The notes below the pieces were generated by a model, which was not told the DNA's origin, made no database searches, and saw only the letters and a program-made list of their open reading frames with translations. Position numbers and translations under genes: made by a program. A stretch of 64,000 nucleotides of DNA from an uncultured Actinomycetota bacterium. Its GTDB lineage: Bacteria; Actinomycetota; Actinomycetes; JAHEKZ01. The stretch lies in the NCBI GenBank assembly GCA_963726575.1, contig CAVSCR010000007.1:475555-539554 (forward strand), in the 5' to 3' direction. Positions 2,813 to 42,454 of this stretch are shown here, piece after piece. Position 1 is the first letter of the stretch. Each line of letters begins with the position of its first letter.

Positions 2813-2900
2813 TCTGAATCGGTTTGGCGGGCGCAGTCGGCACTGACTGACCTGTCCTGATCGGCCGGCGTCTGGGACGGGCACGACTAGGGTCCGCTGG

Positions 2901-3440
2901 GTGATCGACGTCGACGCGGGGTGGCGGACGCGACGGCTGGTGCTCGAGCCCCTCACCGCCGCCCACGCCGCCGCGATGCAACCGGTCCTCGCGGACCCAT
3001 CGATGTACCAGTTCACCGGCGGTGCTGCGCTCACGACCGAACAGCTCGAGGCCCGATATGCGCGTCTGGCGCAACGACGCTCCCCCAACGGTCACGAGAT
3101 CTGGGGCAACTGGGTGCTGCGGACGACGACGTCGAACGCCTTGGTCGGCGCAGTTCAGGTGTCGCTCCCAGCGAACGGACCAGGTGCTGACGTCGCGCGC
3201 GTCGCCTGGGAGGTCGGCGTGCCGTTCCAGGGCCAGGGCTACGCCAGCGAGGCCGCCACCGAGCTGGTCCAGCGGCTGCTGATTGACGGGCTGGTGCGTG
3301 GTGGCGACCATCCACCCCGATCACATCGCCTCGCAGCGTGTCGCAGAACGTGCTGGTCTCGTGCCGACGCAAGCGCATCGAGGACGGCGAAGTCGTGTGG
3401 TGGGCCGATCCCTGGGGCGGTCGTGAGCTGGACGAGGGTG
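2901..3440 (+). pseudogene. GNAT N-acetyltransferase (RimJ/RimL-like), disrupted by frameshifts
   Basis: N-terminal 130 aa are GNAT-like (RLVLEPLTAAHAAAM...QGQGYASEA). The reading then continues in another frame (VATIHPDHIASQRVAERAGLVPT) and ends at a stop near 3425, with a third frame carrying RIEDGEVVWWADPW. At least 2 frame changes within 540 nt. Confidence 0.5.
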
Positions 3441-6620: not shown

Positions 6621-6696
6621 TGTTGATCTAGGAGATGATGCTGGCTTTTCAAGATCAACTTACACATCAAGTCCAAGATCAACTTTGGTTTGGGTT
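6621..6696. repeat. AT-rich conserved intergenic element, copy A (TGTTGATC ... CAAGATCAAC-N14-CAAGATCAAC)
   Basis: About 85% identical over ~75 nt to 47136-47210. It is ~35% GC in a ~70% GC background and lies between the convergent corA and CFA-synthase genes. Confidence 0.6.
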
Positions 6697-7946: not shown

Positions 7947-7961
7947 CGTGGTCTGCCTTTC

Positions 7962-9335
7962 TCACCGACTCCGTACGCACTTTGCGTACAGGTCGAGCAA
8001 CCGGCCATCTGAGTCGTACGTCTTCTTCAACACGTCGTATGTCTCGCCGTTGTACGTGGCCCAGAACTCATCCTCCTCGTAGCACGACGACGAGTACAGG
8101 GACTTGCGCCCCCCGAGGTCGGCCACGAGGCGCTCGACGATCCGGTTGTAGGTGCCGTCGGACTCACCGGGCTCCAGCGCCACCGAGGACCAGAATCCGA
8201 AGTTCACGTAGGTGGTGGATGGATCCAGCCGGTACAGGTCCCACGGTGCGGCACCTCGGTTGCGCAGCGGGCACATCCACACCGGTGCGATCCCGATCTG
8301 CTCGTGGAACCGCTCCAGAAACTCCGGCGCCCGGCTGATCGGGATCTCGACGTCCTGGATCACGGCCTCACGCTCTGGCTGACCACGCCGGCGTTGCAAC
8401 GCACTGAGGTAGCCGTGACGACGCTCGAACCCGACCAGCTTCCAGTAGGTGTCGCTGCGCAGGTAGCGCCGCGGGATCAGCGGCCGGATGAGCGGGTGCT
8501 GGACACCCAGCGCCCGCGAGCACCAGAACCAGTCCGTGTCCCAGCGCCACAGGTAGTCGTGCACCGTCAGGTAGTCGCGGCTGCGGTCGTGCTGCGACCG
8601 GTAGTAGATCTGGTTGCCCGTGTAGTCGGAGACGTAGGGCGCCTCAGAGACGAACCGGCCGAGCGTCATCACATGATCGCCCTCGCCGAACACCGTGCCG
8701 TCGACGAAGTCGACGTGGGCTCCGTCCCAAGCCGAGTCTGCGACGACGCGCTCGACGGCCGCGAAGTACTCCTCGGCCTTGCCGAACCGGATGTGTCTCA
8801 ACTCGACAAAGGGTTCGACCTGCTCCAGCTCGATCGTCAGGCGCAACGCGTACCCGAGCGTGCCGTAGGAGTTGGGGAAGCCGTGGAAGAGGTCGCGGTG
8901 CTCGTTGTCGGCGGTCGCCACCACGATCTGTCCGTCGCCGGTGAGGATCTCCATCTCGAGCACCGACTCGTGCGGGCAGCCGTTGCGGAACGACGACGAC
9001 TCGATCCCGAGTCCGGTCACCGCGCCACCCAAGGTGATCGTCTTCAGCTGCGGCACGACCAGCGGCATCATGGCGAACGGCAGCGTCGCCTCGACCAGAT
9101 CCTCGTAGGTGGTCATGCCCAGCACGTCAGCCGTCTTGGCCACGGGATCGATCGACAGGACCCCCGAGAAGGCCGACACGTCGAGGCCCGGCTGGGCGGT
9201 CGCAGCGCGCACCCGGAACAGGTTCGAGGTCTTCTTGGCCAGGCGAACCGGCTCACCGGGGGGGATCGCGGCATAGTCCGCCCGCAGTTGTTCTCGGGCG
9301 GCGTGGAACCTCTCGATCCCGGGCATGACGATCAT
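7962..9335 (-). CDS. FAD-binding oxidoreductase, PCMH-type (DHCR24/DWF1-like)
   Basis: FAD-binding domain and a DHCR24-like C-terminal tail (LYSSSCYEEDEFWATYNGETYDVLKKTYDSDGRLLDLYAK). Start placed at MIVMPGIERF; the upstream 31 codons of the ORF look non-coding. Confidence 0.6.
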   Translation of the reverse strand: MIVMPGIERFHAAREQLRADYAAIPPGEPVRLAKKTSNLFRVRAATAQPGLDVSAFSGVLSIDPVAKTADVLGMTTYEDLVEATLPFAMMPLVVPQLKTITLGGAVTGLGIESSSFRNGCPHESVLEMEILTGDGQIVVATADNEHRDLFHGFPNSYGTLGYALRLTIELEQVEPFVELRHIRFGKAEEYFAAVERVVADSAWDGAHVDFVDGTVFGEGDHVMTLGRFVSEAPYVSDYTGNQIYYRSQHDRSRDYLTVHDYLWRWDTDWFWCSRALGVQHPLIRPLIPRRYLRSDTYWKLVGFERRHGYLSALQRRRGQPEREAVIQDVEIPISRAPEFLERFHEQIGIAPVWMCPLRNRGAAPWDLYRLDPSTTYVNFGFWSSVALEPGESDGTYNRIVERLVADLGGRKSLYSSSCYEEDEFWATYNGETYDVLKKTYDSDGRLLDLYAKCVRSR

Positions 9336-9384
9336 CGTAGGAAGGTCGACCGAACCTGACCAGGGAACCCCGGGATCGGCCAGG

Positions 9385-9876
9385 TCAGGGGCGAGGGAGC
9401 CGCTCCTGCAGCACGGCCGCGAGCTCATCGGCCCGTTGGGAGCCCAACAGCACCAGGCGACCCTGGGTGAGCTCCAGCCGGACCCCGCGGTTGCCGCGAA
9501 CCGTGTAACAGAGGTTCGCGCGGCGACCTCGGACCCCCCAGCCCCAGTAGTCGCCGAACGGCCGGTAGGTGACGGCCTGCGCGCTCACCATCTCGGAGAA
9601 CGAAATCGACCGGTTCGCGAACGGAGGGTATGACACCAAGACCTCACCGGCTCGCACCACTGTGGTCAGGCCGCAGATGAGCAGAACCTGAGGGGCCACG
9701 ACGCCCAGCAGCAGCCACAACAGCACCATCGTGAAGTTCGACGGGGGATGATGTCCCACGGGATGGTGCAGGAGCACCTGCAGCACGAAGACCGCCCAGG
9801 CGACGATCGCGCCCACCGCCACGATGGCGCTGATCCACCAAACGCGCGCGATGCGCTGCTTCTCGGTGAAGACGAT
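9385..9876 (-). CDS. Membrane-anchored bacterial PH-domain protein (bPH_2/DUF304-like)
   Basis: GTG start (VTATTIVFTEKQRIARVWW), two TM helices, then a PH-like domain (EVLVSYPPF...GNRGVRLELTQGRLVL). Confidence 0.5.
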   Translation of the reverse strand: MVFTEKQRIARVWWISAIVAVGAIVAWAVFVLQVLLHHPVGHHPPSNFTMVLLWLLLGVVAPQVLLICGLTTVVRAGEVLVSYPPFANRSISFSEMVSAQAVTYRPFGDYWGWGVRGRRANLCYTVRGNRGVRLELTQGRLVLLGSQRADELAAVLQERLPRP

Positions 9877-11991: not shown

Positions 11992-13455
11992 GTGAGTTCG
12001 CAGGCGGCGGTGGCCGCAGGGAACCGCGACACGGTGGCTGCCGCGGTGTCCGTGCTCCGAGCCGGGGGCAATGCCTTCGACGCCGCGCTGGCGGCGGGGT
12101 TCGCGGCCGCCGTCACCGAGCCGGGGCTGTCCAGCCTCGGCGGAGGTGGCTTCCTGCTGGCCCACCACGCGAGCGGACGGCAGGAGCTCTACGACTTCTT
12201 CGTCGACGTCCCGGGACGGGGTCGTTCGGCTCAGGTGCGCGAGCCGCACTTCACGCCGGTCACCGTCCAGTTCGCCGGGATCGCCCAGGTGTTCTACGCC
12301 GGCTACGGCTCGGTGGCGGTGCCAGGCTGCCTGGACGGCTACCTCATGGCCCACGCCCGTTTGGGCCGACTCCCCCTGGCGGCCGTCGTCGGGCCGGCGC
12401 AGCGCCTGGCAGAGGACGGCTTTGCCTTGGCGCCGACGCAGGCCGACGTGCTCCAGCTGCTGACGGGGATCTTGTCGCTGACGAAGGAGGGACGTGCCGC
12501 GTTCTTGCCGCACGGCCGGCTGCCGGTTGCTGGGGAGACGCTGCGCCAACCCGACTACGCCGACACCCTGGCCCGAATCGCGTCGGGCGGGATCCAGGGG
12601 TTCGCCAGCGCCGGACTCGGCGACGTGCTGGCGTCGGCGATGAGCGAGCACGACGGTCTGGTGGGTGCGGACGACCTGGCCGGATACGCACCTGTGGTCC
12701 GTGCACCGTTGTCGGTGGACTATCGCGGCTGCCGGATCGCCACCAACCCACCACCGTCCTTCGGCGGCAGCATCGTCATGCGCGCGCTTTCGTTGTTCGG
12801 CGAAGGCGCCCAGCTCGCCGCCCCGAACGACCTGGCCCGCCTGGTCGGCACCGTCGCGACGGCCACGGAGGAGGAGAAGCGACGTCGCGCAGGACCGTCA
12901 TCCAGCCAGGGAACGACACACGTCAGCGTGGTCGACGGCGACGGCAACGTCGCCTCGATGACGACGTCGAACGGCTCGTGTTCAGGGGTCTTCGTCCCCG
13001 GTACGGGCATCCAGCTCAACAACGTCATGGGTGAGCGCGACCTGCATCCCGAGGGTTTCCACGTGGCCGAACCCGGGACCCGGGTGGCCTCGATGATGGC
13101 CCCGACGGTGATCACCGCTCCTGACGGCTCGGTCACTGCACTCGGCAGCGGCGGCAGCGAGCGGATCCGCAGCGCGCTGCTGCAAGTGATCGTCAACCTC
13201 ATCGATCGAGGGCAGACGCCCGAGCAGGCTGTGACAGCTCCCCGGGTCCATCTCGACGACGGCGTCGTGCAGGCCGAGCCCGGTTTCGCCACGGAGACCT
13301 ACGAAGCCTTGTCACAGGTCTTCGACGTGAACGCGTGGTCGCGTCCGGATCTGTACTTCGGCGGCACCCACGTCGTGCGTCTCGACGCGCACGGGCGGGC
13401 GACGGCCGCGGGTGACCCGCGACGCGGTGGGGCCTCAGCCGTGGTCGACCTGTGA
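11992..13455 (+). CDS. ggt: Gamma-glutamyltransferase family protein
   Basis: GGT signatures: GGGGF, the autoprocessing threonine region [21 protein letters not shown], and GSGGS. Confidence 0.8.
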
Positions 13456-14817
13456 TCCGCCTGCCAGTCGTTCCACACGCGCGTGCAGCCAACCCAACGT
13501 CGTCTCGCTCTCTGGCTTGAGCAGGACGCTGCGCAAGATCCTTGGCCGTTCGACGTCGGCCACGATCCCGGGACACGCGTGCGCAAGCTGATCACCGGTG
13601 ACTCGCAGCGTCGACAGGTACACCGGGTCGATCGCGTCGTCCATGCCTTCGGTGAGCATCCTCGCCGACTCCCGGTCCACCGCCGACGCGGTCGCGCGTC
13701 GGGGCAGATAGGTGACGATGTCGGTCGCCGGTGGGACGAAGGGAGCCAGAACCTGCGACGTCTCCAGCAGTTCGTGCCAGCGCACCGCTGCTCGCCGTCC
13801 CGCCGCCAGCCCGGCGCCCAGGCCGTCGTGGCTCAGCGGGAACACCTGCAGGGTGAGCCACAGTGCCGCCGCAGCCGCGCCGGCGCGCGAGCATTCGAGG
13901 CTGATCTCACCGAGGTGCAGCTCGTCGGACGTGAAGTACGTGTACGGGGAGTCGTGCGCGTAGAAGCGACCGACGGCCGGATCACGGAACAACACTGCTC
14001 CGCACCCGTAGGGCTGCAACCCGTGCTTGTGGGGGTCAACGACCACCGAATCCGCCTGCGCGATCGCCAGCCACGGCGGCGGCTCGACGCCGCCGGCAGC
14101 GTCAGACGCGCCCGTCGCCAGCAGCCGGAAGAATCCGCCGTACGCCGCATCGACGTGGACCCGTGCACCGTACTCATGCGCCAAGGGCACGATCGCGTCG
14201 ATCGGATCCACTGCGCCGAGTCCGGTCGTGGCTGCGGTCGCGACGACTGTTCCGACCGTGCCCGTCGCCAACACGTCACGGAGTGCGGCGACGTCCATGC
14301 GGCCTGCGTCGTCGGTCGGCACCGGAGTCGACTCGATGCCGAGGAGACGACACATCCTGGCGTGGGTGTAGTGGCTGTCGACGGAGAAGGCGACGCCGGC
14401 GCGGGGGTGGAGTTCGCGCGCCACGAACAGCGCCTCCAGGTTCGCGATGGTTCCGCTGCTGGTGAGGTGACCGAGGTGCTGTTCGAAGCCGAACATGGCG
14501 GCGAGGTCGGCCACCACCTCCTTCTCCATGCGCGCCGTCGCGGGTCCACCGTCGAGCGCGTGGTTGTTCGGGTTGATGAGCATCGTGGCCAGGTAGCCCA
14601 CCACGGCCACCGGGTGCGGCGGCTTGAGCATCTGCCCGGCATAGCGAGGGTGGTGGAAGGGGTAGTTGTCGCCCAGTCGGTCGACGAGGTGCTCCAGGGC
14701 GCTCGCCAGCCTCGCCTCGTCGACCACCTGGGAGGAATGCGGCTCGAACTGACCGGCCTGCGACTGCCAGTCCTGGACCGCCTCGACCGCACGCGTGGTC
14801 CAGACGTTCAGGTCCAC
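13435..14817 (-). CDS. Pyridoxal-phosphate-dependent group II decarboxylase (aspartate/glutamate/diaminobutyrate decarboxylase family)
   Basis: YPFHHPRYAGQMLKPP, SVDSHYTHARM and a PLP-lysine region. The ORF track extends to 14988 across a tRNA gene, so the start was trimmed to the GTG at 14817. Confidence 0.75.
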   Translation of the reverse strand: MDLNVWTTRAVEAVQDWQSQAGQFEPHSSQVVDEARLASALEHLVDRLGDNYPFHHPRYAGQMLKPPHPVAVVGYLATMLINPNNHALDGGPATARMEKEVVADLAAMFGFEQHLGHLTSSGTIANLEALFVARELHPRAGVAFSVDSHYTHARMCRLLGIESTPVPTDDAGRMDVAALRDVLATGTVGTVVATAATTGLGAVDPIDAIVPLAHEYGARVHVDAAYGGFFRLLATGASDAAGGVEPPPWLAIAQADSVVVDPHKHGLQPYGCGAVLFRDPAVGRFYAHDSPYTYFTSDELHLGEISLECSRAGAAAAALWLTLQVFPLSHDGLGAGLAAGRRAAVRWHELLETSQVLAPFVPPATDIVTYLPRRATASAVDRESARMLTEGMDDAIDPVYLSTLRVTGDQLAHACPGIVADVERPRILRSVLLKPESETTLGWLHARVERLAGGSQVDHG

Positions 14818-14841
14818 GCGTCCGCCCTTCGGCCGGTCGGC

Positions 14842-14925
14842 GGCGAGGGAGGGATTTGAACCCCCGGAGGATCGCTCCTCAGACGCTTTCAAGGCGCCCG
14901 CATTAGGCCGCTCTGCCACCTCGCC
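14842..14925 (-). tRNA. tRNA-Ser (anticodon TGA), long variable arm
   Basis: rc = GGCGAGGTGGCAGAGCGGCCTAATGCGGGCGCCTTGAAAGCG...GGTTCAAATCCCTCCCTCGCC, with anticodon loop CTTGAAA. Confidence 0.8.
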
Positions 14926-15032
14926 CGGTGCTCCGGCGAGCAGGCTAGCGTCCGGCCGACCTGTGCCGCGGATTCTGCTCCGGCGCACCTGCGTGCGAGA
15001 CTGCCAGGCGTTGTTCCCCCGCCAGGAAGAAG

Positions 15033-16058
15033 ATGATGGACGGCAACGCCAGCTATCGCCACGCCAATACCGCCGTTCTCTCGGTCACTGCCGTGAAGGC
15101 GCCCCAGGTGGTGACGTCGGCCCAGTTCGACGAGGTGCTCGAACCTACGTTTCGGCGTCTGGGCCTGCGGCCCGGCCTGCTCGAAGGGCTCGCTGGGATC
15201 TACGAACGCCGCTGGTGGCCCGAGGGCTACCACTTCACGGACGCGGCTGCTGCCGCCGGCGAGTCCGCACTCGAGGCCGCCGGGATCGAGCGCGACCGCA
15301 TCGGCCTGATGATCAACTCCTCCATCTCGCGCGAGTACCTCGAGCCTTCGTCAGCTGTGAAGATCCACCACGACCTCCGGCTGCCGACCTCGGCCACGAA
15401 CTTCGACCTCGCCAATGCCTGCCTCGGGTTCATGAACGGCATGCACCTCGCTGCGTCGATGATCGATGCGGGCCACATCGACTACGCCCTCGTCGTGGAC
15501 GGCGAGGATGCGCGAGCCGTCCAGGAGTCCACCCTCGCTCGCCTCTCGCGCGACCACGTGACCACCGAAGACCTGTTCAGCGAGTTCGCCTGCCTGACGC
15601 TCGGATCCGGAGCGGCGGCGATGGTGCTGGGGCGCGCGGACCGGCACCCGGAGGGTCACCGACTGGTCGGCGGCATCTCGCGGGCGGCTACCGAGCACCA
15701 CATGCTCTGTATCGGTGACAACGAGCACATGACCACCGACACCAAGGGCCTGCTCGACGCTGGGCTGGAGCTCGCCGAGTCGGCCTGGAAGGAAGCGCTG
15801 GTCGACTTCGACTGGCGCGACATGGACTGCTACGTCCTGCACCAGGTGTCGCGCGTCCATACCGAGTCGTTGTGTGCTCGCTTGGGTATCGACTTGAAAC
15901 GTGCGCCGTTGACCTTCCCCACGTACGGCAACATCGCGTCTGCCGCATTGCCGTTCACCCTGGCACTGCAGTCCGAGCAGCTCAACGCCGGCGAGCGCGT
16001 GCTGTGCATGGGCATCGGCTCGGGACTCAACGTCGCGTTCTGTGAGATCACCTGGTGA
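15033..16058 (+). CDS. oleA: OleA, FabH-like thiolase-superfamily acyl-CoA condensing enzyme (olefin biosynthesis)
   Basis: 341-aa KAS III-like protein leading a 4-nt-overlap operon. It reads alpha/beta-hydrolase::AMP-ligase fusion, then 3beta-HSD-family reductase, which is the oleA-oleBC-oleD arrangement. Confidence 0.75.
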   Translation: MMDGNASYRHANTAVLSVTAVKAPQVVTSAQFDEVLEPTFRRLGLRPGLLEGLAGIYERRWWPEGYHFTDAAAAAGESALEAAGIERDRIGLMINSSISREYLEPSSAVKIHHDLRLPTSATNFDLANACLGFMNGMHLAASMIDAGHIDYALVVDGEDARAVQESTLARLSRDHVTTEDLFSEFACLTLGSGAAAMVLGRADRHPEGHRLVGGISRAATEHHMLCIGDNEHMTTDTKGLLDAGLELAESAWKEALVDFDWRDMDCYVLHQVSRVHTESLCARLGIDLKRAPLTFPTYGNIASAALPFTLALQSEQLNAGERVLCMGIGSGLNVAFCEITW

Positions 16059-18637
16059 CTGCCGGGCCGACCATCGCGGCGTCACTTCCCCCGCACGGCT
16101 TGCCTGGGCTCGACTCCTCGTGGTCGCGGCTGGTGGTGACCCAAGACGAGGACGATGTGAGGCACACGTGGCACGTGCTCGACACGTGGGCCCATCGAAC
16201 CGGTGCCCCGCGCCTGACCTACCTGTGCGTGCACGGCAACCCCACGTGGTCCTACCTGTGGCGCAGCCTCGCGGCCGCGATCGACCCGCGCGACCGGTTG
16301 ATCGCGGTCGACCAGCTGGGTATGGGCTTCTCTGAGCGCACGGGACAGTTCCCCCGCTTCGCCGAGCGCGTCACCCAGTTGGGGCAGCTCACGAACGCAG
16401 TCGGCGTCACCGGACAGGTCGTCACGGTGGGACACGACTGGGGTGGTGCGATCTCGCTTGCGTGGGCGTTGGACCACCGCGAGCAGCTCGCCGGCATCGT
16501 GTTGACGAACACCGCTGTCGCCCAGCCGGACGGCGCACGACCTCCGGCCCTGATCTCGCTGGTCACCTCCCGGCCGCTGCTGCGCGTGAACACGGTGCGC
16601 ACCCCGGCGTTCCTCGCCGGCACTCTTCGCCTGGCACATCCGGCGCTGCCGGACGACGTCGCGCGCGCGTACCGGGCTCCCTACCGGGGCGCTTTCCGCC
16701 GCCAGGCCATCGGTGACTTCGTCGCCGACATCCCCTTGTCGCAGGAGCATCCCAGCTACGCCGCGTTGCGCCGCGTCTCCGACGGCCTCCCGACACTTTC
16801 CGACGTACCCGCCCTGCTGCTCTGGGGCCCGCGCGACCCGGTGTTCTCCGACCGCTACCTGCGCGATCTGTTGCGCCGGCTGCCCCAGGCACAGGTGCAT
16901 CGCTTCGAAGGCGCCGGCCACCTCGTGGTGGAGGACGCTCCCGTCGCCGCGCAGGTGACTCGGTGGGTCGAGACAACGGCGCTGGCAGAAGCTGAGCCGG
17001 GGGAACCAGCTCCGCACGTCGAGGCGGCGGACGCCGAGCCTCTGTGGGCGGCCATCGATCGCCGGCGCGACGACGCGACACCGGCCGTGGTCGAGTGCGG
17101 TAGCCCGGCCCGCGTGGTGAGCTGGCGCGATCTGGCCAGCGTGGTCGACGCACTCGCCGCGGGACTGGTGGCGGACGGGCTGACCCCCGGGGACCGGGTG
17201 GCGCTGCTGGTACCGCCCGGTGCGGATCTGACCGCTCTGGTCTACGCGTGCTGGAAGGCCGGCGCCGTGATCGTGGTCGCTGATGCTGGGCTGGGTCTGC
17301 CCGGCCTTCGACGCGCTCTGCGTGGCGCACACCCCGACGTCGTGGTCGGGATCCCCCAGGCACTCGCTGCGGCCCGCCTCATGCGCCTGCCGGGGCGGTA
17401 TCTGCTGGTGGGTGGGAGCTCTCGTTGGTCGGCCAGGGCGCTGCGGGCGCGATCGGTGCGCGACGTCGTGCGCGACGGCCGCGGCCGCACCCCTCCTTCG
17501 CCGCCCGAGAGCGATGACGAAGCGGCGGTGCTGTTCACCTCTGGTGCAACCGGACCTGCCAAGGGTGTGGTCTACCGACACCGACACCTGCACGCCCAGC
17601 GAGAGATGCTCGCGACCGCGTACCAGATCACTCCCGACGACCGGCTCGTTGCAGCGTTCGCGCCGTTCGCGCTGTACGGACCCGCACTCGGCATCGGATC
17701 GGCGGTCCCGGACATGGAGGTGACCGCACCCGCGACCCTCACCGCAGCGGCGCTGGCTGACGCTGCGCAGCAGATCGACGCAACCTTGGTGTTCGCCTCG
17801 CCGGCGGCCCTGTCGAACGTGGTGGCCACCGCGTCGGAGCTGTCCGACACCCAACAGGCGACGCTGCAGCGAGTCCGGCTCCTGCTGTCCGCCGGCGCGC
17901 CCGTTCCGGTCGATGTCCTGCGCCGTGCTGCAGAGCTCTTGGGCGACGCCAGCGCGCACACGCCCTACGGCATGACCGAGGTGCTACCGGTGACCGACGT
18001 GACCTTGCCGGAGATCGAGAAGGCGGGCGTCGGCAACGGTGTCTACGTGGGGCACCCCCTCGCCGGCGTCCAGGTCGCGATCGCCCCGCTGGATGCCTCC
18101 GGCGTTCCCCTGCTCGGGTCGACGCTCGAGCCCCAGGTCAGCGGTGAGATCTGCGTCAGCGCGGCGCACGTGAAGGATCGCTACGACCAGCTGTGGGCGA
18201 CCCAGCAGGACAGCGGACAGCTGCCCGGATGGCACCGCACCGGCGACGTCGGCCACCTCGATGCCGACGGCGGGCTGTGGGTCGAGGGACGTCTGGTCCA
18301 CATCGTCGTGACGAGCCGTGGCGTCGTGACCCCGGTGGGTGTGGAAGCCCGCCTTGAGCAGCTGCCCGGAGTGCAACGGGCGGCGATCGTGGGGGTGGGA
18401 CCGGTCGGCACCCAGCAGGTGGTCGCCGTGATCGTTCCCGACGCCAAGCGCCAGGGACTGGTGGCGAGCCCAGACCTCTGCGACCAGGTGCGGGAGGCCG
18501 CCGGCGTCGCCGTTGCTGCTGTCTTGCTGCGCGACGCCCTGCCGGTGGACATCCGGCACAACGCCAAGATCGACAGAGGAGACCTGGCGCGGTGGGCGTC
18601 CGACGTCCTCGCCGGCCGGGGTGAGAGCAGGCCATGA
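16055..18637 (+). CDS. oleBC: OleBC fusion: haloalkane-dehalogenase-like alpha/beta hydrolase (OleB) fused to AMP-dependent synthetase/beta-lactone synthetase (OleC)
   Basis: N-terminal YLCVHGNPTWSYLWR (alpha/beta hydrolase). The C-terminal 550 aa form an adenylate-forming domain (LFTSGATGPAKGVVYRH ... TGD). GTGA overlap with the oleA stop. Confidence 0.8.
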   Translation: MTAGPTIAASLPPHGLPGLDSSWSRLVVTQDEDDVRHTWHVLDTWAHRTGAPRLTYLCVHGNPTWSYLWRSLAAAIDPRDRLIAVDQLGMGFSERTGQFPRFAERVTQLGQLTNAVGVTGQVVTVGHDWGGAISLAWALDHREQLAGIVLTNTAVAQPDGARPPALISLVTSRPLLRVNTVRTPAFLAGTLRLAHPALPDDVARAYRAPYRGAFRRQAIGDFVADIPLSQEHPSYAALRRVSDGLPTLSDVPALLLWGPRDPVFSDRYLRDLLRRLPQAQVHRFEGAGHLVVEDAPVAAQVTRWVETTALAEAEPGEPAPHVEAADAEPLWAAIDRRRDDATPAVVECGSPARVVSWRDLASVVDALAAGLVADGLTPGDRVALLVPPGADLTALVYACWKAGAVIVVADAGLGLPGLRRALRGAHPDVVVGIPQALAAARLMRLPGRYLLVGGSSRWSARALRARSVRDVVRDGRGRTPPSPPESDDEAAVLFTSGATGPAKGVVYRHRHLHAQREMLATAYQITPDDRLVAAFAPFALYGPALGIGSAVPDMEVTAPATLTAAALADAAQQIDATLVFASPAALSNVVATASELSDTQQATLQRVRLLLSAGAPVPVDVLRRAAELLGDASAHTPYGMTEVLPVTDVTLPEIEKAGVGNGVYVGHPLAGVQVAIAPLDASGVPLLGSTLEPQVSGEICVSAAHVKDRYDQLWATQQDSGQLPGWHRTGDVGHLDADGGLWVEGRLVHIVVTSRGVVTPVGVEARLEQLPGVQRAAIVGVGPVGTQQVVAVIVPDAKRQGLVASPDLCDQVREAAGVAVAAVLLRDALPVDIRHNAKIDRGDLARWASDVLAGRGESRP

Positions 18638-19599
18638 AGGTGCTGGTCACCGGTGCCAGCGGCATGCTCGGCACGGGTGTCGCGCAGGCACTGATCGAGC
18701 GCGGGGACGACGTCACCGTGCTGCAACGACGCCCCAGCGGCCTGCCCTGCGCAGAGATTCGGGGCGACCTCACGGACGCGACTGTCGTCAACGCTGCAGT
18801 CGTCGGGCAAGTGGCCGTGGTGCACCTCGCCGCCAAGGTCTCGGTGACCGGCCCGTGGGCGGAGTTCGCCCGGGTCAACGTGCTCGGGACTCGTGCGCTC
18901 GTGCGGGCCGCGCGCGACGCCGGCGTCGCCCGCTTCGTGCACGTGTCGTCGCCCTCGGTCGCGCACGCCGGAGACCCGCTCGTGGGAGCCGGCGCGAGCG
19001 CGGCCGACCCGGTAGCGGCTCGCGGCTCCTACGCGCGCAGCAAGGCGATGGCCGAGCTGGCTGCCCTCGACGCGGCTGACGACTCGATGTCGGTGGTCGC
19101 GGTGCGACCTCACCTGGTGTGGGGACCAGGCGACACCCAGCTCGTCGAGCGGATCGTGCAGCGGGCCTCCTCAGGACGGTTGGTGCTCATCGACGGCGGT
19201 CGCGCCCTCATCGACACCACCTACGTGACCAACGCCGTCGAGGCGCTCGTCGCGGCTCTCGACCACGCGCCCGACGTCAGCGGCCGCGCTTTCGTGGTGT
19301 CCAACGGTGAGCCACGGACCGTCGCCGAGCTGTTCGCCCGGATCTGCGCCGCTGCAGGTGTCGTCGCGCCGTCGCGTACGGTCGGGTACCCGCTGGCGCG
19401 GGCCGCCGGGTCGGTGGTGGAGCACGCGTGGTCGATGCTGCGAAGGACCGACGAACCGCCTATGACCAGCTTCCTTGCCGAGCAGCTCGCCACCGCGCAC
19501 TGGTTCGACCAGCGTGAGACGCAGCGGGCTCTGCACTGGAGCCCACGGGTCAGCCTGGCCGACGGGTTCGCGCAGCTGACCGCGTACTACACGAGATGA
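18634..19599 (+). CDS. oleD: OleD, NAD(P)-dependent 3beta-hydroxysteroid dehydrogenase/epimerase-family reductase
   Basis: Rossmann [17 protein letters not shown] overlap with the oleBC stop. Confidence 0.75.
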
Positions 19600-20786
19600 T
19601 CGGGATCTAGCCGCACCGGATGAGCCGCCGCGAAGGCCGCGACCGCTAGGGCGATGTCATCGTCGGTGTGAGCTGCGGACAGCTGAACCCGGATCCGCGC
19701 CTGACCCTCCGGCACCACCGGGTAGGAGAACGCAACGGCGTAGACCCCACGCTCCCACAGGCCGGCCGCCACCGAACCCGCAACGCGTGCGTCCCCGAAC
19801 ATCACTGGGACGATGGGGTGCTCGCCAGGCAGCAACGTGAACCCGGCCTCCGTCATGCCGCTGCGGAATGCGGCCGAGTTCGCATGAACGCGCTCGCGCA
19901 GGTCAGAGCTGCTCGCCAGGAGTTCGAGAACCGCGAGCGACGCACCGACCACGGGCGGTGGCACGCTGTTCGAGAACAGGTACGGACGGGCGCGTTGACG
20001 CAGCAGCTGGACGATCTCCGCGCGGGCACTCACGTAACCGCCGCTGGCCCCACCCAGCGCCTTGCCGAGCGTGCCGGTGACGATGTCCACGCGGTCGGCG
20101 ACACCGAACAGTTCCGGCGTACCGCGTCCGGTGGGTCCCACGAACCCGACGGCGTGTGAGTCGTCGACCATGACGAGAGCGTCGTACTCGTCGGCAAGGG
20201 CACAGATCTCGTCGAGTGGAGCCAGGTACCCATCCATCGAGAACACGCCGTCGGTGACGATGAGCCGGTAGCGCGCATCGGCCGCCTCCGCCAGACGGCT
20301 GCTCAGCTGGGCCATGTCTGCGTTGGCATAGCGCAGACGCCGCGCCTTGCACAGCCGGATGCCGTCGATGATCGACGCGTGGTTCAAGGCGTCGGAGATG
20401 ACGGCGTCACGCTCGTCGAGGAGGGCCTCGAACACGCCACCGTTGGCGTCGAAGCACGATCCGAACAAGATCGTGTCCTCGGTTCCCAGGAACTGTGACA
20501 GGCGCTGCTCGAGCTCGCGGTGAACTTCTTGCGTGCCACAGATGAAGCGCACCGAGGCCATCCCGTAGCCCCATCGGTCCAGGGCGTCATGAGCGGCGGC
20601 CAGCACCCGCGGGTCGTCGGCGAGCCCGAGGTAGTTGTTGGCGCACAGGTTGAGGATCTGCCGCCCCGCCTCGTCGGCGACGTGCGTCGCCTGCGGCGTG
20701 CTGATGATGTGTTCGGGCTTGAAGACTCCGCTGTCGTGCATCTGGGTGAGACGCTCACTGAGCTCGGCACGCAGTTGGGTCAACAC
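19587..20786 (-). CDS. kbl: Glycine C-acetyltransferase (2-amino-3-ketobutyrate CoA ligase)
   Basis: Alpha-oxoamine synthase family ([39 protein letters not shown]). Located downstream of tdh. Confidence 0.85.
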
Positions 20787-20787
20787 G

Positions 20788-21852
20788 TCACGCCTCCGAC
20801 CAGTCGAGCACGACCTTGCCGCAGTTTCCGCTGCGCGCGGTAGCGAACGCCTCGTCGAAATCGCGGTAGGAGTAGCGATGTGTGATGACCGGACGAATGT
20901 CGAGACCTGCTCCGACGAGCACGGACATCGCGTACCAGGTCTCGAACATCTCGCGCCCGTAGATACCGCGGATCGTCAGCATCGACGTGATCACCCTGGC
21001 CCAGTCGACGGGAAGGTCACGGACCTCGCCCCCAGGGAGCCCGAGCAGGGCGATCTTCGCGCCGTGTGCCATGACCTCGACCATCGAACGCAGCGCTGCC
21101 GCGGCCCCTGACATCTCCAGCCCGATGTCGAAGCCCTCCTTCATACCAAGCTCGGCGACGACGGAACCCACCTGCGTCTGCGCGACGTTCACGGTGCGGG
21201 TCACGCCCATGCTGCGCGCCAGCGCCAGACGCGACTCGCTGATGTCGGTGACGACCACATGCCTGGCACCGGCGTGCCGCACGACCGCCGCCGCCATGAT
21301 GCCGATCGGCCCGGCCCCGGTGACGAGCACGTCCTCGCCGAGCGTGGGAAAGGCCAACGCCGTGTGCACAGCGTTACCGAACGGATCGAAGATGGCTGCC
21401 ACGTCGAGGTCACGATCGGCCGGATGGCGCCAGACGTTGGTGGCTGGCACGACGACGAACTCGGCGAAGCCACCGTCGCGGTTGACGCCGACGCTGACGG
21501 TGTTCGGGCAAAGTTGGCGGCGGCCGGCCAGGCAGTTGCGGCAGCGACCACACACCAGGTGCCCCTCGACGCTGACGAGGTCGCCGACCTCGACCGTGTC
21601 GACGCCCGGGCCGACGATGTCGACCAGTCCGGCAATCTCGTGTCCGATGACGCGTGGCGCCGAGATCGTGGCAGCGGCCCAAGCGTCCCACGACTGGATG
21701 TGGAGATCGGTGCCACAGATTCCGGTGCGCAGGACTCGGATCCGAACCTCACCGCTGCCGACATCGGGCACAGGGACTTCGCGCAGCACCAAGCCGGGCG
21801 CCGGCTCGGGCTTGACGAGCGCCTTCATCAACGGGTTGCTGCTGCTGGTCAC
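20788..21852 (-). CDS. tdh: L-threonine 3-dehydrogenase (Zn-dependent MDR family)
   Basis: [44 protein letters not shown]. The kbl start codon is 2 nt downstream of the tdh stop. Confidence 0.85.
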
Positions 21853-21882: not shown

Positions 21883-22359
21883 CTAGCGTGGCGGCAGGTC
21901 CTTGGCGAAGCAGAGGTTGCCGGGCTCGTCGGCGTAAAGGCCGAAACCGGGGATCTGGTAGTAGCCACTGGAGCGGTACAGGCTCACGGCCTCTGGCTGC
22001 GCCCGGCCGGTCTCCAGCAGGATCCGTCGGTAGCCGAGACCGGCAGCCTGAGCCTCGACCGCAGTCAGCAGATGACGGGACAGACCACGACCACGAAACG
22101 GCCGACGGACGAACATGCGCTTGACCTCTGCCCGTGTCTCGTCGTGTCGACGGATACCCGCACACGCCACTGCTGAACCGTCCAGCGTCAGGACGAGGAA
22201 TGCTCCGTGAGGCGCCGCGAACTCGGCGGGGGTGACCGGAGTGTGGTCGTGGTCCCCGTAACGGTCGACGTACTCCAGCTGCAGCTCTTCGATGAGCGTG
22301 TGAGACGTCGCATCGTCGTAGCTCTGTTGAAGCACCTCGATCTCGTCCACCAACGTCAC
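21883..22359 (-). CDS. GNAT family N-acetyltransferase
   Basis: GNAT core RRPFRGRGLSRHLLTAVEAQAAGLGYRRILLETG. The GTG start overlaps the upstream enoyl-CoA hydratase stop (GTGA). Confidence 0.7.
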   Translation of the reverse strand: MTLVDEIEVLQQSYDDATSHTLIEELQLEYVDRYGDHDHTPVTPAEFAAPHGAFLVLTLDGSAVACAGIRRHDETRAEVKRMFVRRPFRGRGLSRHLLTAVEAQAAGLGYRRILLETGRAQPEAVSLYRSSGYYQIPGFGLYADEPGNLCFAKDLPPR

Positions 22360-23129
22360 TGCACCCCTGACCAGTCGGCGGGACGCCGAGCGAGGAACGC
22401 CGCCATTCCCTCGGCGGCCTCGGAAGAGCCGAACAGGGCCTGGGACACCTCTGCCGTCCATGGCCACGCGTCCGCTCGCGGCATGTTCGGTACCCGAGCC
22501 AAGAGGTCTTTGGTCGCAGCAACCGCGCGAGGGCCACAACGGTCGAGGTCTGCCACCCATTCTGCGACGGTGTCGTCGAGGTCGACGTCGGCAACGACCC
22601 GTTGCACCAGGCCGGCCTGTCGGACCCGCTCAGCCGGCACGCGTGCCCCAGTGAGCATGAGCTCCGCGGCATCGACGGGGCGCAGCTTGCGCAGGACGGC
22701 GACGGAGATGACCGCGGGAGCCACCCCCAACCGCACCTCACTGAAGGCAAACGTGGCAGCCTCGACCGCCACGGCGAGGTCGCTCGCGGCGACCAGTCCC
22801 ACACCCCCGCCGGCCACGTGCCCCTGCACCCGCGCGATGACCGGCTTGGGCAACGAGATCATCTGCTCGAGTACCTCGGCCAGAGCAGCCGGACCGGCGG
22901 AGAAGGCGTCGTCGGCCGCGGTGCCTTGCGTGAGATCAGCCCCCGAGCAGAAGACCGTGCCGCTTCCCGTCAGCACCACCGCACGCACGCCCGGGTCGTC
23001 AGCCGCGCGCGAGAGTGCCTGCCGCAGCGACGCAAGGCTGGCCGCGTCCAGGGCATTGCGCACCTGTGGTCGGTCGAGGGTGATCCGGGCGACTGATCCG
23101 ACGACCTCGAGGTGCACGGTCTCTGTCAT
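22356..23129 (-). CDS. Enoyl-CoA hydratase/isomerase family protein
   Basis: Crotonase fold (VVLTGSGTVFCSGADL). 4-nt overlap with the upstream ACAD gene. Confidence 0.8.
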   Translation of the reverse strand: MTETVHLEVVGSVARITLDRPQVRNALDAASLASLRQALSRAADDPGVRAVVLTGSGTVFCSGADLTQGTAADDAFSAGPAALAEVLEQMISLPKPVIARVQGHVAGGGVGLVAASDLAVAVEAATFAFSEVRLGVAPAVISVAVLRKLRPVDAAELMLTGARVPAERVRQAGLVQRVVADVDLDDTVAEWVADLDRCGPRAVAATKDLLARVPNMPRADAWPWTAEVSQALFGSSEAAEGMAAFLARRPADWSGVQ

Positions 23130-24274
23130 CGGCGTCCCATCCCCTCCAGCATCGTCAGGATCCGCAACATGACCTCGTCGGCGCCACCACCGATGGACAG
23201 CAGGCGCGAGTCGCGGAAGTAGCGCGACACCCAGTGGTCGCTCATGTACCCCATACCGCCATGGAACTGCAGGCAGGTGTCGGCGACCTCGCGCACCAGC
23301 CGGCCCGTCTTCAGCTTGGCGACTGTGGCAAAACGGGTGGGGTCGACGCCGTCGACGACCGCCTGTGCCGCGGCGTAGTTGTAGTGCCGCAGCAGATCGA
23401 CCTCCGCAAGCAGCTCCGCGAGTCGGTACTGCACCGCCTGGTTGGCCAGCAGCGGTTTGCCGAACGCGTCGCGCTCACGCAAGAAGGCGATGGTGCGGTG
23501 CAGGGCGCGTTCCATGCCCACGACGGCGATGTAGCAGCCGATCAGGCGCTCGTCCTGGAACTGCATCATCTGTTGCTGGAACCCCTGCCCGACTTCGCCG
23601 ATCGTGTTCGTCACGGGCACGACCACGTCTTCGAACACGAGCTCCGCGGTGTCGCTGCTGCGGTTCCCCAGCTTGTCCAGGGTCCGACCGACGCTGAACC
23701 CGGGCGTCTGCGTCGGCACCACTACCTGCGACATGCCCTGGTGGCCGCCCTCGTCGGAAGTGCGCACGAGTACGCAGACCCAGTCCGCCTGCGCGCCGTT
23801 GGTGATGTACAGCTTCGTCCCGTTGATGACCCAGTCGTCGCCCTCGCGCTTCCCAGCGGCACGGATCCCCGCGACGTCGCTGCCGGCGTCCGGTTCGGTG
23901 ACGGCGACGGCGGCGACGACCTCACCGCGGATCGCCGGGGCCAAGAAGCGCTGCTTCAGCTCAGGGGACCCGAAGCGGTGGAGGCTGGGAGTCGCCATGC
24001 AGGCCTGCACCGCGATCGCCATGGGAACGCCCGCCGCCTCGCATCGACCCAGTTCTTCGCCGAGCACGACGGTGTAGCTGTGGTCGACCCCCATCCCGCC
24101 GTACTCCTCGTCGTACTCCAACCCGAGCAGACCAAGCGCGCCGAGCTTGGGGAACAGCTCGTGGGCGGGGAACGCGCCCGCTTGCTCCCACTCATCGATG
24201 TGGGGATTGATCTCGCGGTCGACGACGTCACGCACGAGGGCACGTAACGCCTCGTGCTGCGCGGTGAACCTCAT
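23126..24274 (-). CDS. Acyl-CoA dehydrogenase
   Basis: Full ACAD three-domain pattern. Start placed at MRFTAQHEAL, overlapping the TetR stop. Confidence 0.8.
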   Translation of the reverse strand: MRFTAQHEALRALVRDVVDREINPHIDEWEQAGAFPAHELFPKLGALGLLGLEYDEEYGGMGVDHSYTVVLGEELGRCEAAGVPMAIAVQACMATPSLHRFGSPELKQRFLAPAIRGEVVAAVAVTEPDAGSDVAGIRAAGKREGDDWVINGTKLYITNGAQADWVCVLVRTSDEGGHQGMSQVVVPTQTPGFSVGRTLDKLGNRSSDTAELVFEDVVVPVTNTIGEVGQGFQQQMMQFQDERLIGCYIAVVGMERALHRTIAFLRERDAFGKPLLANQAVQYRLAELLAEVDLLRHYNYAAAQAVVDGVDPTRFATVAKLKTGRLVREVADTCLQFHGGMGYMSDHWVSRYFRDSRLLSIGGGADEVMLRILTMLEGMGRR

Positions 24275-24924
24275 CGGCTCACCTCCTCCCTCACGTACGA
24301 GACCGAGGCCGCCGCCGGACGGGACAGGCCGATCGCCTGCACCCAGAGTCGGTTGAGGGTGGCCACGGTCGTCGCGTCGGTGACGCCCCGACCGGCTCGG
24401 GTCTGACGTCGGGCGTAGCTCTCCACCATGCCGCACAGTGCTTCTCCGGCAATCACCGGATCGAGCCCGCGATCGGCCTCGCCCTGGCGCTGCAGCCGAC
24501 GCAGGCTGCGCACCGCACGTTCGACGAACGACGCCCGCAGCTCATCGAGGATCTTCCGGTACCGCGGGTCGGTAGTCGCTGCATGCTCCACGACGGCCAT
24601 GAGCCGGGCGTGGCGCTCGAACGCCACGAGGTACTTCTGGTTGGCCACCTCGAGACGTTCGACGAGATCCTCCGGGTCGCCTGGCGTCATCGTCAGCTCG
24701 GCGACGACATCTCCCGCCAATGCGTCGACGACAGCGGCGAGCACGGCGTCCTTGTTCTCGAAGTACGTGTACACGGTGCCGTGTGAGACGCGCGCAGCAT
24801 CCGCGATGTCCGACATGGTGGCGTCGGCGAAGCCACGCGACTCGAACACCTCTCGCGCAGCGACGAGCACGGCCTCCTTCGTGCGGTGCCCGCGCGGGGT
24901 CAAGGGCACCATGCGCGTGGTCAT
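24271..24924 (-). CDS. TetR/AcrR family transcriptional regulator (AtuR-like position)
   Basis: N-terminal HTH TKEAVLVAAREVFESRGFADATMSDIADAARVSHGTVYTYF. ATGA overlap with the AtuA stop. Confidence 0.75.
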   Translation of the reverse strand: MTTRMVPLTPRGHRTKEAVLVAAREVFESRGFADATMSDIADAARVSHGTVYTYFENKDAVLAAVVDALAGDVVAELTMTPGDPEDLVERLEVANQKYLVAFERHARLMAVVEHAATTDPRYRKILDELRASFVERAVRSLRRLQRQGEADRGLDPVIAGEALCGMVESYARRQTRAGRGVTDATTVATLNRLWVQAIGLSRPAAASVSYVREEVSR

Positions 24925-26753
24925 GGCGTCGCCTCGTTGAGCAGGAACCGCGGGGCATGGACCCACCTCGCGCGCAAGTACTCGCCCAGTCCCTTGCCCT
25001 GCGGATCGAGGAACACGTTCTCGGCCACGCCGCGGCCCAGCAGGCCGCGCACGACGAAGTTGACGGCGCGCAGGTTGGGGAGCTCGTATCGGTCCACGAC
25101 CAGACCCGCGCACTCGGGCAGCAGCCGCTGCAGCTCCCACGGCGTGAGCGTTGCGCTCAGCCACTCGAAGGCGGCGTCGACGTCGGGCAAGCCGTCGCGC
25201 ACCCAGACGCCGATGTTGGCGTTGCCACCCTTGTCCCCGGAACGGGCACCGACCAGGCGTCCCCAGGGCAGGTGCACGGTGTCCTGTTCGCGGCCCGGGT
25301 CCACGTCCGGCGCCGGCTCCGGTTGGCGCGAGCTCAGACCGGGCATCGGCGGTTGCCACGGCATCGCGGCCGGTGAGACGCCGGGAACTTGCGCCACCTG
25401 GTCGCCGTCGACGCACACCACCTGGGCGAGCGCGGCACCGACGGAGGTGGGCCAGTAGACCCCGAAGGGACTGCCCGGCGCGGGTTGGCCGGTGGCGAAC
25501 AGCCCGGGCACGCTGGCCAAGGTCAGCTCGATCGCCGGCGCCGTGAACGCCTTGCCCACGAGGTTCGGGTCGCGGCTGCGAACCGTGATCCGCAGGTCGG
25601 ACTGGGCCTGCCACAGGTCCTGCGGCTCGCCGGCGTCAGCGTGGTGGCGCAGGAGCTGGACGTCGACGGCGTCGAAGACGTCGCGGCCCCCGGGGATGGC
25701 CGCGAACAGCTGCTCCGTCACCAGGTCCGCCTTGGCCTCCACGTCAAGTCCGGTGAGGACGAAGGTCACCGCGTTGCGGAACCCACCGAGGTAGTTCAGG
25801 GCCACCTTCAACCGGTCCGGGGGTGCCAGCCCGCGCACCCCCTCGATCGCCACCCGGTCGTCGCCGTCGGCCCGCAGGCGAATCGAGCCGAAGTCGGCCG
25901 TGGCGTCCGGGTTCGGGTAGGCGACAGATTCGATCTCGTAGAGCAGTTGCGCTGTCACCGTGCCGCAGGTGACCTCACCGCCCAACCCCCGCGGCCCCGC
26001 ATGCTTGGTGATGACGCTGCTGCCGTCGGGCGCGATCTCGGCGATCGGGAATCCGAGCCGCGCGATGCCCGGAACCTCCTGGAAGAACGCGTAGTTGCCA
26101 CCGGTCGCCTGCGTGCCGCACTCGATGACGTGTCCCGCCACGATCGCGCCAGCCAGCGCGTCGAGGTGGTCCGGCGACCAACCGAACCGCCAGGCGGCCG
26201 GGCCGACCACCAGCGCCGCGTCTGTCACGCGCCCGGTGACCACGATGTCGGCGCCGGCGTCCAACGCCGCTTTGATCCCGAACCCGCCCAAGTAGGCGTT
26301 GGCGGTCAAGGCCGGCACGCCGAGCTCACTGAACGTCTCACCGGTGTCCAGGTTGGTGAACGGCTCCCCCGCCGCGCGCAGCTCGTCGATGCGCGGGACA
26401 AGGTCGTCGCCCGTGACGACCGCGATCACCGGACTCAGGCCGAGCCGCTCGGCGAGATCACGTAGGGCATCGGCCAGGCCGTTCGGGTCCAGGCCTCCCG
26501 CGTTGGACACGACCTTGATGTCGCGCTCGAGAACGGGGGCTAGGACCTGTTCCATCTGCGTCACGAACGTGCGCGCATAGCCGCTACCCGGCCCGTGCTT
26601 CATGCGGCTGCGGGCCAGGATCAACATGGTCAGCTCGGCCAACCAGTCGCCGGTCAGGACGTCGATCGGACCGCCTTGCACCATCTCGGCGGCCGCCGAT
26701 ATCCGGTCGCCGTAGAAGCCACTCACGTTGGCGATGCGCAGCACCTGGCTCAT
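24921..26753 (-). CDS. atuA: Acyclic terpene utilisation AtuA family protein (DUF1446 + DUF4387)
   Basis: MSQVLRIANVSGFYGDRISAAAEMVQGGPIDVLTGDWLAEL is the AtuA N-terminal signature. 610 aa. Confidence 0.75.
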   Translation of the reverse strand: MSQVLRIANVSGFYGDRISAAAEMVQGGPIDVLTGDWLAELTMLILARSRMKHGPGSGYARTFVTQMEQVLAPVLERDIKVVSNAGGLDPNGLADALRDLAERLGLSPVIAVVTGDDLVPRIDELRAAGEPFTNLDTGETFSELGVPALTANAYLGGFGIKAALDAGADIVVTGRVTDAALVVGPAAWRFGWSPDHLDALAGAIVAGHVIECGTQATGGNYAFFQEVPGIARLGFPIAEIAPDGSSVITKHAGPRGLGGEVTCGTVTAQLLYEIESVAYPNPDATADFGSIRLRADGDDRVAIEGVRGLAPPDRLKVALNYLGGFRNAVTFVLTGLDVEAKADLVTEQLFAAIPGGRDVFDAVDVQLLRHHADAGEPQDLWQAQSDLRITVRSRDPNLVGKAFTAPAIELTLASVPGLFATGQPAPGSPFGVYWPTSVGAALAQVVCVDGDQVAQVPGVSPAAMPWQPPMPGLSSRQPEPAPDVDPGREQDTVHLPWGRLVGARSGDKGGNANIGVWVRDGLPDVDAAFEWLSATLTPWELQRLLPECAGLVVDRYELPNLRAVNFVVRGLLGRGVAENVFLDPQGKGLGEYLRARWVHAPRFLLNEATP

Positions 26754-37251: not shown

Positions 37252-37302
37252 GCTGCGCAGGCCCTGAGCCAGCGCCGCGATGCCAGCAGCCAGGTGCGGG
37301 AG

Positions 37303-38049: not shown

Positions 38050-38165
38050 GATGGTGCCGTCGAGGTCGGTGGCGACGAGCCGGATCGCGCCCGGATCAAG
38101 CGGGGACGCGATCAGTGCTCACGCGAGTCCTGACCGACTCTGCGCAACGCGGTCGTCCAAGAGAG

Positions 38166-42431: not shown

Positions 42432-42454
42432 CCGCGCAGCGTAGCGAGGGCCGC

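Follow-up and report, generated by a model that had tools for sequence, protein, structure and literature searches.

A predicted olefin biosynthesis operon of the fused actinobacterial type, oleA-oleBC-oleD, beside a tRNA-Ser gene in an uncultured actinobacterium

This study deals with a cluster of three genes, oleA, oleBC and oleD, on a 64 kb stretch of a contig (CAVSCR010000007.1) from an uncultured Actinomycetota bacterium; the whole stretch is referred to here as the window, and positions are counted from its first letter. The first gene, oleA, occupies positions 15033-16058 of the plus strand and encodes the thiolase OleA with 341 amino acids from an ATG start, and the second ATG at 15036 may be an alternative start. 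Behind it, likewise on the plus strand, lie oleBC (16055-18637, 860 amino acids, GTG start), which encodes an OleB::OleC fusion, and oleD (18634-19599, 321 amino acids, ATG start), which encodes the OleD reductase. As read off the sequence, oleA and oleBC overlap by GTGA at positions 16055-16058, and oleBC and oleD by ATGA at positions 18634-18637; an earlier note on this DNA had described three open reading frames (ORFs) chained by such overlaps, and the coordinates and junctions match exactly. The Pfam domains found are ACP_syn_III, ACP_syn_III_C and Thiolase_N in the first ORF, Abhydrolase_1 (amino acids 57-296) followed by AMP-binding (amino acids 342-707) in the second, and Epimerase and 3Beta_HSD in the third. 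The genes had been read as a complete oleA-oleBC-oleD operon, which is borne out by the profile scores, the catalytic residues, the synteny, the phylogeny and the purifying selection described below. Judged from these features, the region very likely harbours a working ole operon of the three-gene actinobacterial type that resides on the chromosome.

The best matches of OleA in the PDB are the OleA structures of Xanthomonas campestris (3ROW/3S21, E = 1.6e-82, 280 bits), with any FabH reaching 68 bits at most. In the NCBIfam library, OleA reaches 441.6 bits with NF006720, above the cut-off of 285, and passes none of the FabH models (NF006829 and TIGR00747, with 107 bits for a cut-off of 249 and 89 bits for a cut-off of 292). 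Since the name of NF006720 is generic (“3-oxoacyl-ACP synthase III”), the crystallised Xanthomonas OleA was run on the same library as a control, where it showed the same pattern, scoring 473 bits with NF006720 and failing the FabH models. Residues E104, C130, H270 and N300 align with E117, C143, H285 and N315 of the Xanthomonas enzyme, in which the roles of Cys143, His285 and Asn315 and of the OleA-specific Glu117 in the [LIVYF]-E-P motif have been defined (PMC8180931). The search pattern EPxx[AS]x(14,18)DxxNACL of Surger et al. (PMC7158056) is found at amino acids 104-131. The earlier note had proposed to distinguish OleA from FabH by homology, and by its scores in both libraries, its residues and its motif the protein sides with OleA. 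Its family placement supports an assignment as a predicted acyl-CoA:acyl-CoA alkyltransferase of the thiolase superfamily.

The OleB domain of the fusion protein, an α/β-hydrolase of the haloalkane dehalogenase subfamily III (HLD-III) type, extends approximately over amino acids 47-312 (positions 16193-16990, plus strand) and is joined to the OleC domain by a linker rich in Ala, Glu and Pro (approximately amino acids 313-341). Among PDB entries it is matched best by DhmeA (8OOH/8CKP, E about 5e-25), itself an HLD-III enzyme; the haloalkane dehalogenase models of NCBIfam, a library without an OleB-specific model, score below their cut-offs. HLD-III enzymes use a catalytic pentad, in which an Asn and a Trp serve the halide or oxyanion, an Asp is the nucleophile, a further Asp the acid and a His the base. 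The OleB of X. campestris has been assigned to this subfamily and its pentad defined (PMC10503415). In the window protein, N62, D128, W129, D261 and H289 align with N63, D129, W130, D258 and H286 of DhmeA. Among 76 OleB homologues, 39 actinobacterial and 37 others, all taken from ole clusters, no variation occurs at D128, W129, D261 and H289, and the position of N62 holds Asn in 75 and Cys in one. Family and residues thus support a putative β-lactone decarboxylase of the HLD-III type.

The OleC domain, an adenylate-forming (ANL) enzyme predicted to be a β-lactone synthetase, covers approximately amino acids 342-855 (positions 17078-18619, plus strand) and contains the adenylation motifs TSGATGPAKG (amino acid 495), YGMTE (638) and TGD (729). 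Its top NCBIfam match is NF006754 with 369 bits (cut-off 478), followed by 299.6 bits with NF045786 (cut-off 900) and 261 bits with NF045785 (cut-off 850); generic acyl-CoA ligase models score at most 165 bits. The OleBC of Arthrobacter agilis reaches 305, 236 and 333 bits on NF045786, NF045785 and NF006754, respectively. OleD contains the motifs TGASGMLG (amino acid 6; TGxxGxxG) and YARSK (amino acid 133; YxxxK). On the OleD model of NCBIfam, NF042422, it scores 308.8 bits (cut-off 580), the next unrelated family being HpnA with 122.8 bits, and the OleD proteins of Arthrobacter and Pseudarthrobacter, with 287 and 289 bits, likewise remain below 580. These features support OleD as a predicted NAD(P)H-dependent 2-alkyl-3-oxoalkanoate reductase, an extended short-chain dehydrogenase/reductase of the 3β-hydroxysteroid dehydrogenase family.

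For comparison, one genome per species was scanned, which yielded 80 loci, the best match being 58% identical. The order oleA-oleBC-oleD was found in all actinobacterial loci that hold all three genes, so that chance hardly accounts for this arrangement; the same three proteins are also clustered in the listed non-actinobacterial loci. OleB and OleC lie in a single open frame in all 41 actinobacterial loci with both parts, including those of Ilumatobacteraceae (Acidimicrobiia); of the 37 non-actinobacterial loci put to the open-frame test, 36 have them as separate ORFs. The same test spoke against widespread OleBC fusions outside the Actinobacteria, which matches of Desulfobulbales and Geobacteraceae to approximately residues 40-855 of the query had suggested. 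The sole exception is a locus from the metagenome-assembled genome (MAG) of a spirochaete (L070, 4342-6840), with OleB and OleC in one frame of 940 codons and an OleA on a long branch. It may represent a second independent fusion outside the Actinobacteria besides that of Granulosicoccus, in which OleB and OleC likewise form one polypeptide (PMC7064751). Unlike the Granulosicoccus fusion, that of the window belongs to a monophyletic actinobacterial fusion clade.

This clade was obtained in a neighbour-joining tree of the concatenated OleA, OleB, OleC and OleD sequences with 200 bootstraps, in which the fusion-type clusters are monophyletic in 100% of the replicates. One subclade of them is formed by the Acidimicrobiia (100%); in the other (100%), the window stands together with Micrococcaceae, Kineococcus and four uncultured Actinomycetota MAGs. 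The window cluster is placed outside the group of Micrococcaceae and Kineococcus (100%), as sister to the locus of one of these MAGs (L001) with a bootstrap support of 70% and identities of 71% for OleA and 57% for OleBC. A phylogenetic comparison had been suggested earlier; with Micrococcaceae and Kineococcus in the tree, it places the window inside the fully supported fusion-type clade. The fusion itself is a known feature of actinobacterial clusters (PMC7064751). In their survey, Surger et al. (2020) found ole clusters in 1082 genomes from five phyla, with ole genes of Gram-positive bacteria only in Micrococcales (PMC7158056), and a literature search on ole genes in Acidimicrobiia returned nothing relevant. 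The fusion, noted earlier as the form described in Micrococcus-type actinobacteria, is not confined to them, as it also occurs in Acidimicrobiia and in the window cluster outside the group of Micrococcaceae and Kineococcus.

Three metagenomic relatives of the window were available, one with 87% nucleotide identity (L081) and two with 78% (L082 and L083). The junction of the gene for a pyridoxal-phosphate (PLP)-dependent decarboxylase, the tRNA-Ser gene and oleA is preserved in all three, with an identical tRNA-Ser adjoining oleA, and L081 also retains the kbl-tdh genes and the acyl-CoA cluster downstream. Compared with L081, the ratio of non-synonymous to synonymous substitution rates (dN/dS) is 0.04 for oleA, 0.14 for oleBC and 0.16 for oleD, and 0.05-0.07 for adjacent housekeeping genes, while dS is similar throughout the ole genes and the flanking kbl and tdh (0.43-0.58). 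The low dN/dS and the matching dS therefore indicate that the operon is kept by selection and shares its divergence history with its flanks. OleA has changed far less than its partners, with a dN/dS of 0.04-0.10 across the relatives as opposed to 0.14-0.22 for OleBC; between the window and L082/L083, 91% of the amino acids are identical in OleA, 70% in OleBC and about 65% in the N-terminus of OleD.

Among the known systems, the clusters of Micrococcus luteus and other Micrococcales (Arthrobacter, Pseudarthrobacter, Kocuria, Kytococcus) have the same gene order, the same OleB::OleC fusion and the same domains as the window. Beller et al. reportedly provided heterologous-expression evidence for oleA, oleBC and oleD of M. 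luteus (Mlut_13230-13250) in 2010. The identity of the window proteins to those of Arthrobacter and Pseudarthrobacter is 57-58% for OleA, approximately 49-53% for OleBC and approximately 57-61% for OleD, and the NCBIfam score profile of A. agilis matches that of the window. Olefin producers within the Micrococcales differ as much among themselves, with an OleA identity of 47% (PMC7158056). Their clusters differ from that of the window in genomic context, and the window groups with uncultured Actinomycetota MAGs. The OleABCD system of X. campestris has in common with the window the Cys/His/Asn triad and the trans-subunit Glu of OleA as well as an OleB that belongs to HLD-III and bears this pentad. 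For the window proteins, the Xanthomonas-based models of OleC and OleD are top or near-top scoring. In clusters of the Xanthomonas type, however, oleB and oleC are separate genes, and the protein identity to the window is approximately 30-40%.

The expression of the cluster would begin in the region of 107 nt between the divergent tRNA-Ser gene and oleA (14926-15032), where transcription probably starts from a promoter in this shared gap. Aligned with L081 and L083, this region shows two conserved blocks, GAGCAGGCTAGCG at positions 14938-14950 and GCGTGCGAGACT at positions 14991-15002, which are tentatively assigned to the divergent promoters of the tRNA and of ole. A possible -10 element of the tRNA, TAGCCT on the minus strand, lies in the first block, and one of ole, GAGACT, in the second. 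A Shine-Dalgarno-like AGGAAG lies ahead of oleA at positions 15024-15029. Translation of oleA, oleBC and oleD would be coupled through the start/stop overlaps of 4 nt.

The proposed reaction sequence was derived from the characterised Xanthomonas and Micrococcus systems (PMC7158056, PMC7064751, PMC8180931). Cys130 of OleA would take one fatty acyl group from an acyl-CoA, Glu104 of the partner subunit would deprotonate the α-carbon of the bound acyl chain, and attack on a second acyl-CoA would yield a 2-alkyl-3-oxo acid in a non-decarboxylative Claisen condensation, with CO2 retained. OleD would then reduce this product to the 3-hydroxy acid, and the OleC half of the fusion would adenylate the carboxylate and close the β-lactone ring. 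Finally, the OleB half, with Asp128 as the nucleophile together with His289 and Asp261, would decarboxylate the β-lactone to a cis internal alkene with a length of about twice that of the fatty acid minus one carbon. By analogy with these systems, we infer that the product class would be long-chain internal alkenes. The chain length of olefins is set by the specificity of OleA and the acyl-CoA pool of the host (PMC7158056). Chain length and branching of the product therefore depend on the host pool and are not predictable from the sequence, so that the range of C25-C31 named in the earlier note is only a reasonable guess.

Several points weigh against a functional operon. The OleC and OleD parts of the window score below the NCBI equivalog cut-offs; since the homologues from Arthrobacter agilis and Pseudarthrobacter scleromae are also sub-threshold, these cut-offs appear too narrow for the actinobacterial clade, and olefins have been measured in both genera (PMC7158056, at genus level). 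A scan of positions 14600-20000 for sigma-70 promoter and terminator consensus sequences gave no match, so that the predicted promoter assignments are unproven. The organism is known from assemblies alone. Furthermore, some ole-positive Micrococcales yield only traces of olefins (PMC7158056), and an intact ole cluster is therefore no guarantee of substantial production.

A different product would result if the OleB-like domain were inactive or otherwise employed and the cluster made a β-lactone similar to nocardiolactone or lipstatin. The oleACD clusters for these compounds contain homologous OleA, OleC and OleD proteins, which share the chemistry up to the β-lactone and build such products in Nocardia and Streptomyces (PMC7064751). 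Unlike the window, they contain no oleB, and tailoring genes or an OleA pair that forms a heterodimer are usually present; a cluster with oleB implies olefins and one without it β-lactones (PMC7064751). In the window, OleB is fused in frame to OleC with a complete pentad, oleBC is under purifying selection, and the neighbours are the PLP-dependent decarboxylase and kbl-tdh genes, with no P450, glycosyltransferase or second OleA-like subunit adjacent. The cluster is also nested in the olefin-type fusion clade. A β-lactone as the end product is thus very unlikely, because an intact OleB is what separates olefin clusters from oleACD clusters (PMC7064751).

The origin of the olefin operon must also be considered, because a tRNA gene lies next to it and the earlier note had regarded acquisition by horizontal transfer at this tRNA as conceivable. 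The tRNA-Ser(TGA) gene was identified by ARAGORN and Rfam (RF00005, 51.7 bits) at positions 14839-14925 on the minus strand, 107 nt ahead of the oleA ATG, in agreement with the distance of about 100 nt given before. It is only a neighbour and no part of the olefin pathway. It is divergent from oleA, with its 5' end facing the operon and its 3' end directed towards the PLP-decarboxylase gene. The mechanical ORF of the latter (13435-14988, minus strand) runs through the tRNA gene, across which an automatic annotation could over-extend it. The gene itself most likely begins with the GTG at 14817-14815, which has GAAGGG ahead of it and lies about 21 nt from the 3' end of the tRNA.

Besides the short distance to the tRNA, arrival of the operon as or within a genomic island integrated at tRNA-Ser(TGA) would agree with the patchy distribution of ole clusters, for which rare lateral transfers are documented (PMC7158056, PMC7064751). 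The six flanking genes tested, three per side, are not found beside ole in other actinobacterial lineages. Two further lineages have a tRNA adjoining ole, a tRNA-Leu(GAG) upstream of oleA in Kineococcus (L022, 8542-8627) and a tRNA-Cys approximately 64 nt after oleD in a subclade of Ilumatobacteraceae (L020/021/023-026/031/035, at approximately 13560-13760). Islands that use a tRNA gene as their target sit beyond its 3' end, where integrases act. Since the tRNA-Ser gene is read from the minus strand, the operon is located 5' of it and therefore on the wrong side for such an island, and the geometry is the same in both other tRNA-linked lineages. A tRNA within about 300 nt of ole, always with ole on its 5' side, was thus seen in three actinobacterial lineages and in none of the 37 non-actinobacterial loci. 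With around 40 independent lineages sampled and weak, post hoc statistics, this adjacency probably reflects chance or shared zones of genome plasticity.

The traces that an integration may leave were not found either. The earlier note had proposed to look for a partial repeat of the tRNA-Ser 3' end as an island boundary; no copy of its 3'-terminal 25 nt with up to three mismatches is present in the 64 kb. Near-matches of 18 nt to the tRNA in the window are scattered single hits of 15/18, which is the chance level, or the T-arms of the other two tRNAs, and the sole match of 15 nt is likewise at chance level. The repeat finder gave only weak, GC-rich matches and no direct repeats flanking ole, and no integrase, transposase or phage gene was found among the annotated neighbouring genes checked, so that the statement that neither integrase nor direct repeat is visible holds. 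The composition is typical of the window: by codon-usage distance the ole genes rank 1, 12 and 24 of 43 genes, their tetranucleotide correlation is 0.980 (window mean 0.979), and their GC content at third codon positions (GC3) is 0.85-0.87, similar to the neighbours. A tblastn search with OleBC in 72,556 plasmids gave no match at E<=1e-30. In a search for an empty site, the exact tRNA-Ser sequence was found in only two metagenome contigs, both with ole.

The relatives point in the same direction, as the tRNA-ole junction is kept at 87% and 78% identity with dS values like those of kbl and tdh, and the gene tree parts Actinomycetes-type from Acidimicrobiia clusters in 100% of the replicates. 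Horizontal acquisition at the tRNA-Ser is therefore not sustained by the 5'-side geometry, the lack of any att-like repeat, integrase or compositional anomaly in these searches and a junction conserved down to about 78% identity, and we consider an island at this tRNA highly improbable. A very ancient transfer of ole into the lineage is possible, because the tested flanking genes do not recur beside ole in distant actinobacteria, although a loss of synteny is to be expected at such distances anyway. In general, a tRNA gene beside an accessory cluster is no evidence of an island by itself. The strand, att repeats, composition and the synteny in relatives should be checked, and here all of them argue against an island.

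That the three genes are unrelated housekeeping genes, namely a FabH for the initiation of fatty acid synthesis, an acyl-CoA ligase and a sugar epimerase, would be compatible with the generic names of the Pfam domains (ACP_syn_III, AMP-binding, Epimerase) and of NF006720, but is hardly credible for an OleA that fails every FabH model, bears the OleA-specific Glu and motif and finds in crystallised OleA a PDB match more than 200 bits ahead of all others, in a translationally coupled set of genes with a constant order across the actinobacterial loci with all three genes.

The wider neighbourhood of the olefin operon has a GC content of approximately 69% over the window and includes chemotaxis and cyclic di-GMP genes; with Rfam, three tRNAs and no rRNA were found. 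On the tRNA side of ole lie genes for a methyl-accepting chemotaxis protein, a γ-glutamyltransferase and the PLP-dependent decarboxylase. On the other side, the convergent kbl gene (19587-20786, minus strand) shares the last 13 nt of oleD, with its stop codon inside the end of oleD. It forms with tdh an operon for threonine degradation (19587-21852, minus strand) comprising glycine C-acetyltransferase (NF005394, 618 bits, cut-off 460) and L-threonine 3-dehydrogenase (NF003808, 519 bits, cut-off 380). This is followed by an atu/liu-like cluster for acyl-CoA catabolism (22356-30408, minus strand) with genes for enoyl-CoA hydratase, acyl-CoA dehydrogenase, AtuA (503 bits), a carboxyltransferase and a biotin carboxylase that carries a biotinyl domain; in L081, a TetR gene is located between the acyl-CoA dehydrogenase and AtuA. 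A link of this cluster to ole, for example through the supply of branched acyl-CoA, is conceivable.

Further away, a conserved core block of the actinomycete type (36676-46236) contains genes for the Bpa proteasome activator, a Cof-type HAD hydrolase, serS, pheA, DUF4446, DUF5926/SEC-C and GlpQ. The serS gene (38166-39440; TIGR00414, 429 bits) was left out by the GC3 gene filter. Between serS and pheA, a GGDEF-EAL gene (39431-41410) interrupts the block; a further one is found at 819-3311, and an adenylate cyclase/AAA ATPase gene at 31508-33442. Together with the Bpa gene and the placement in the ole tree, the gene order serS-pheA-DUF4446-DUF5926-GlpQ suggests an Actinomycetota host, probably of the Actinomycetes type, and the GC content and the chemotaxis and cyclic di-GMP genes of the window agree with such a chromosome. 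Upstream of ole, a FAD_binding_4 protein (7962-9428) is followed by a methyltransferase of the cyclopropane fatty acid synthase family (6695-8008; PF02353, 329 bits), both on the minus strand. In order and domains, this pair (6695-9428) matches the bfaA-bfaB operon for 10-methyl-branched fatty acids of the tuberculostearic type (PMC7791843, PMC5660069), a likeness at the level of architecture only.

If this bfaAB-like pair is real, the fatty acid pool of the host may differ from that of the anteiso-rich Micrococcales. From the pair, 6-8 kb upstream of ole, and the Acidimicrobiia clusters, a joint reading can be drawn up, according to which the host would be a deep-branching lineage of the Actinomycetes type outside the Micrococcales, its pool, if OleA draws on such acyl-CoAs, would lead to undescribed mid-chain-methylated or otherwise non-anteiso long-chain olefins, and the fusion would be ancestral to a far broader share of the Actinomycetota than is recognised so far. 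Taken as a whole, this combination is rather doubtful and is put forward here as a speculative proposal. Since ole clusters are widespread (PMC7158056) and the fusion is familiar (PMC7064751), the window cluster represents the correct annotation of a known system. Mildly new compared with the literature is the taxonomic breadth, with fusion clusters in Acidimicrobiia MAGs and in the deep-branching lineage of the window. Olefins are of interest as precursors of biofuels and lubricants and as lipid biomarkers. With this cluster, a further environmental lineage of actinobacteria joins the likely producers of membrane olefins, and the fused form of oleBC occurs in at least two classes of actinobacteria, beyond the Micrococcales.

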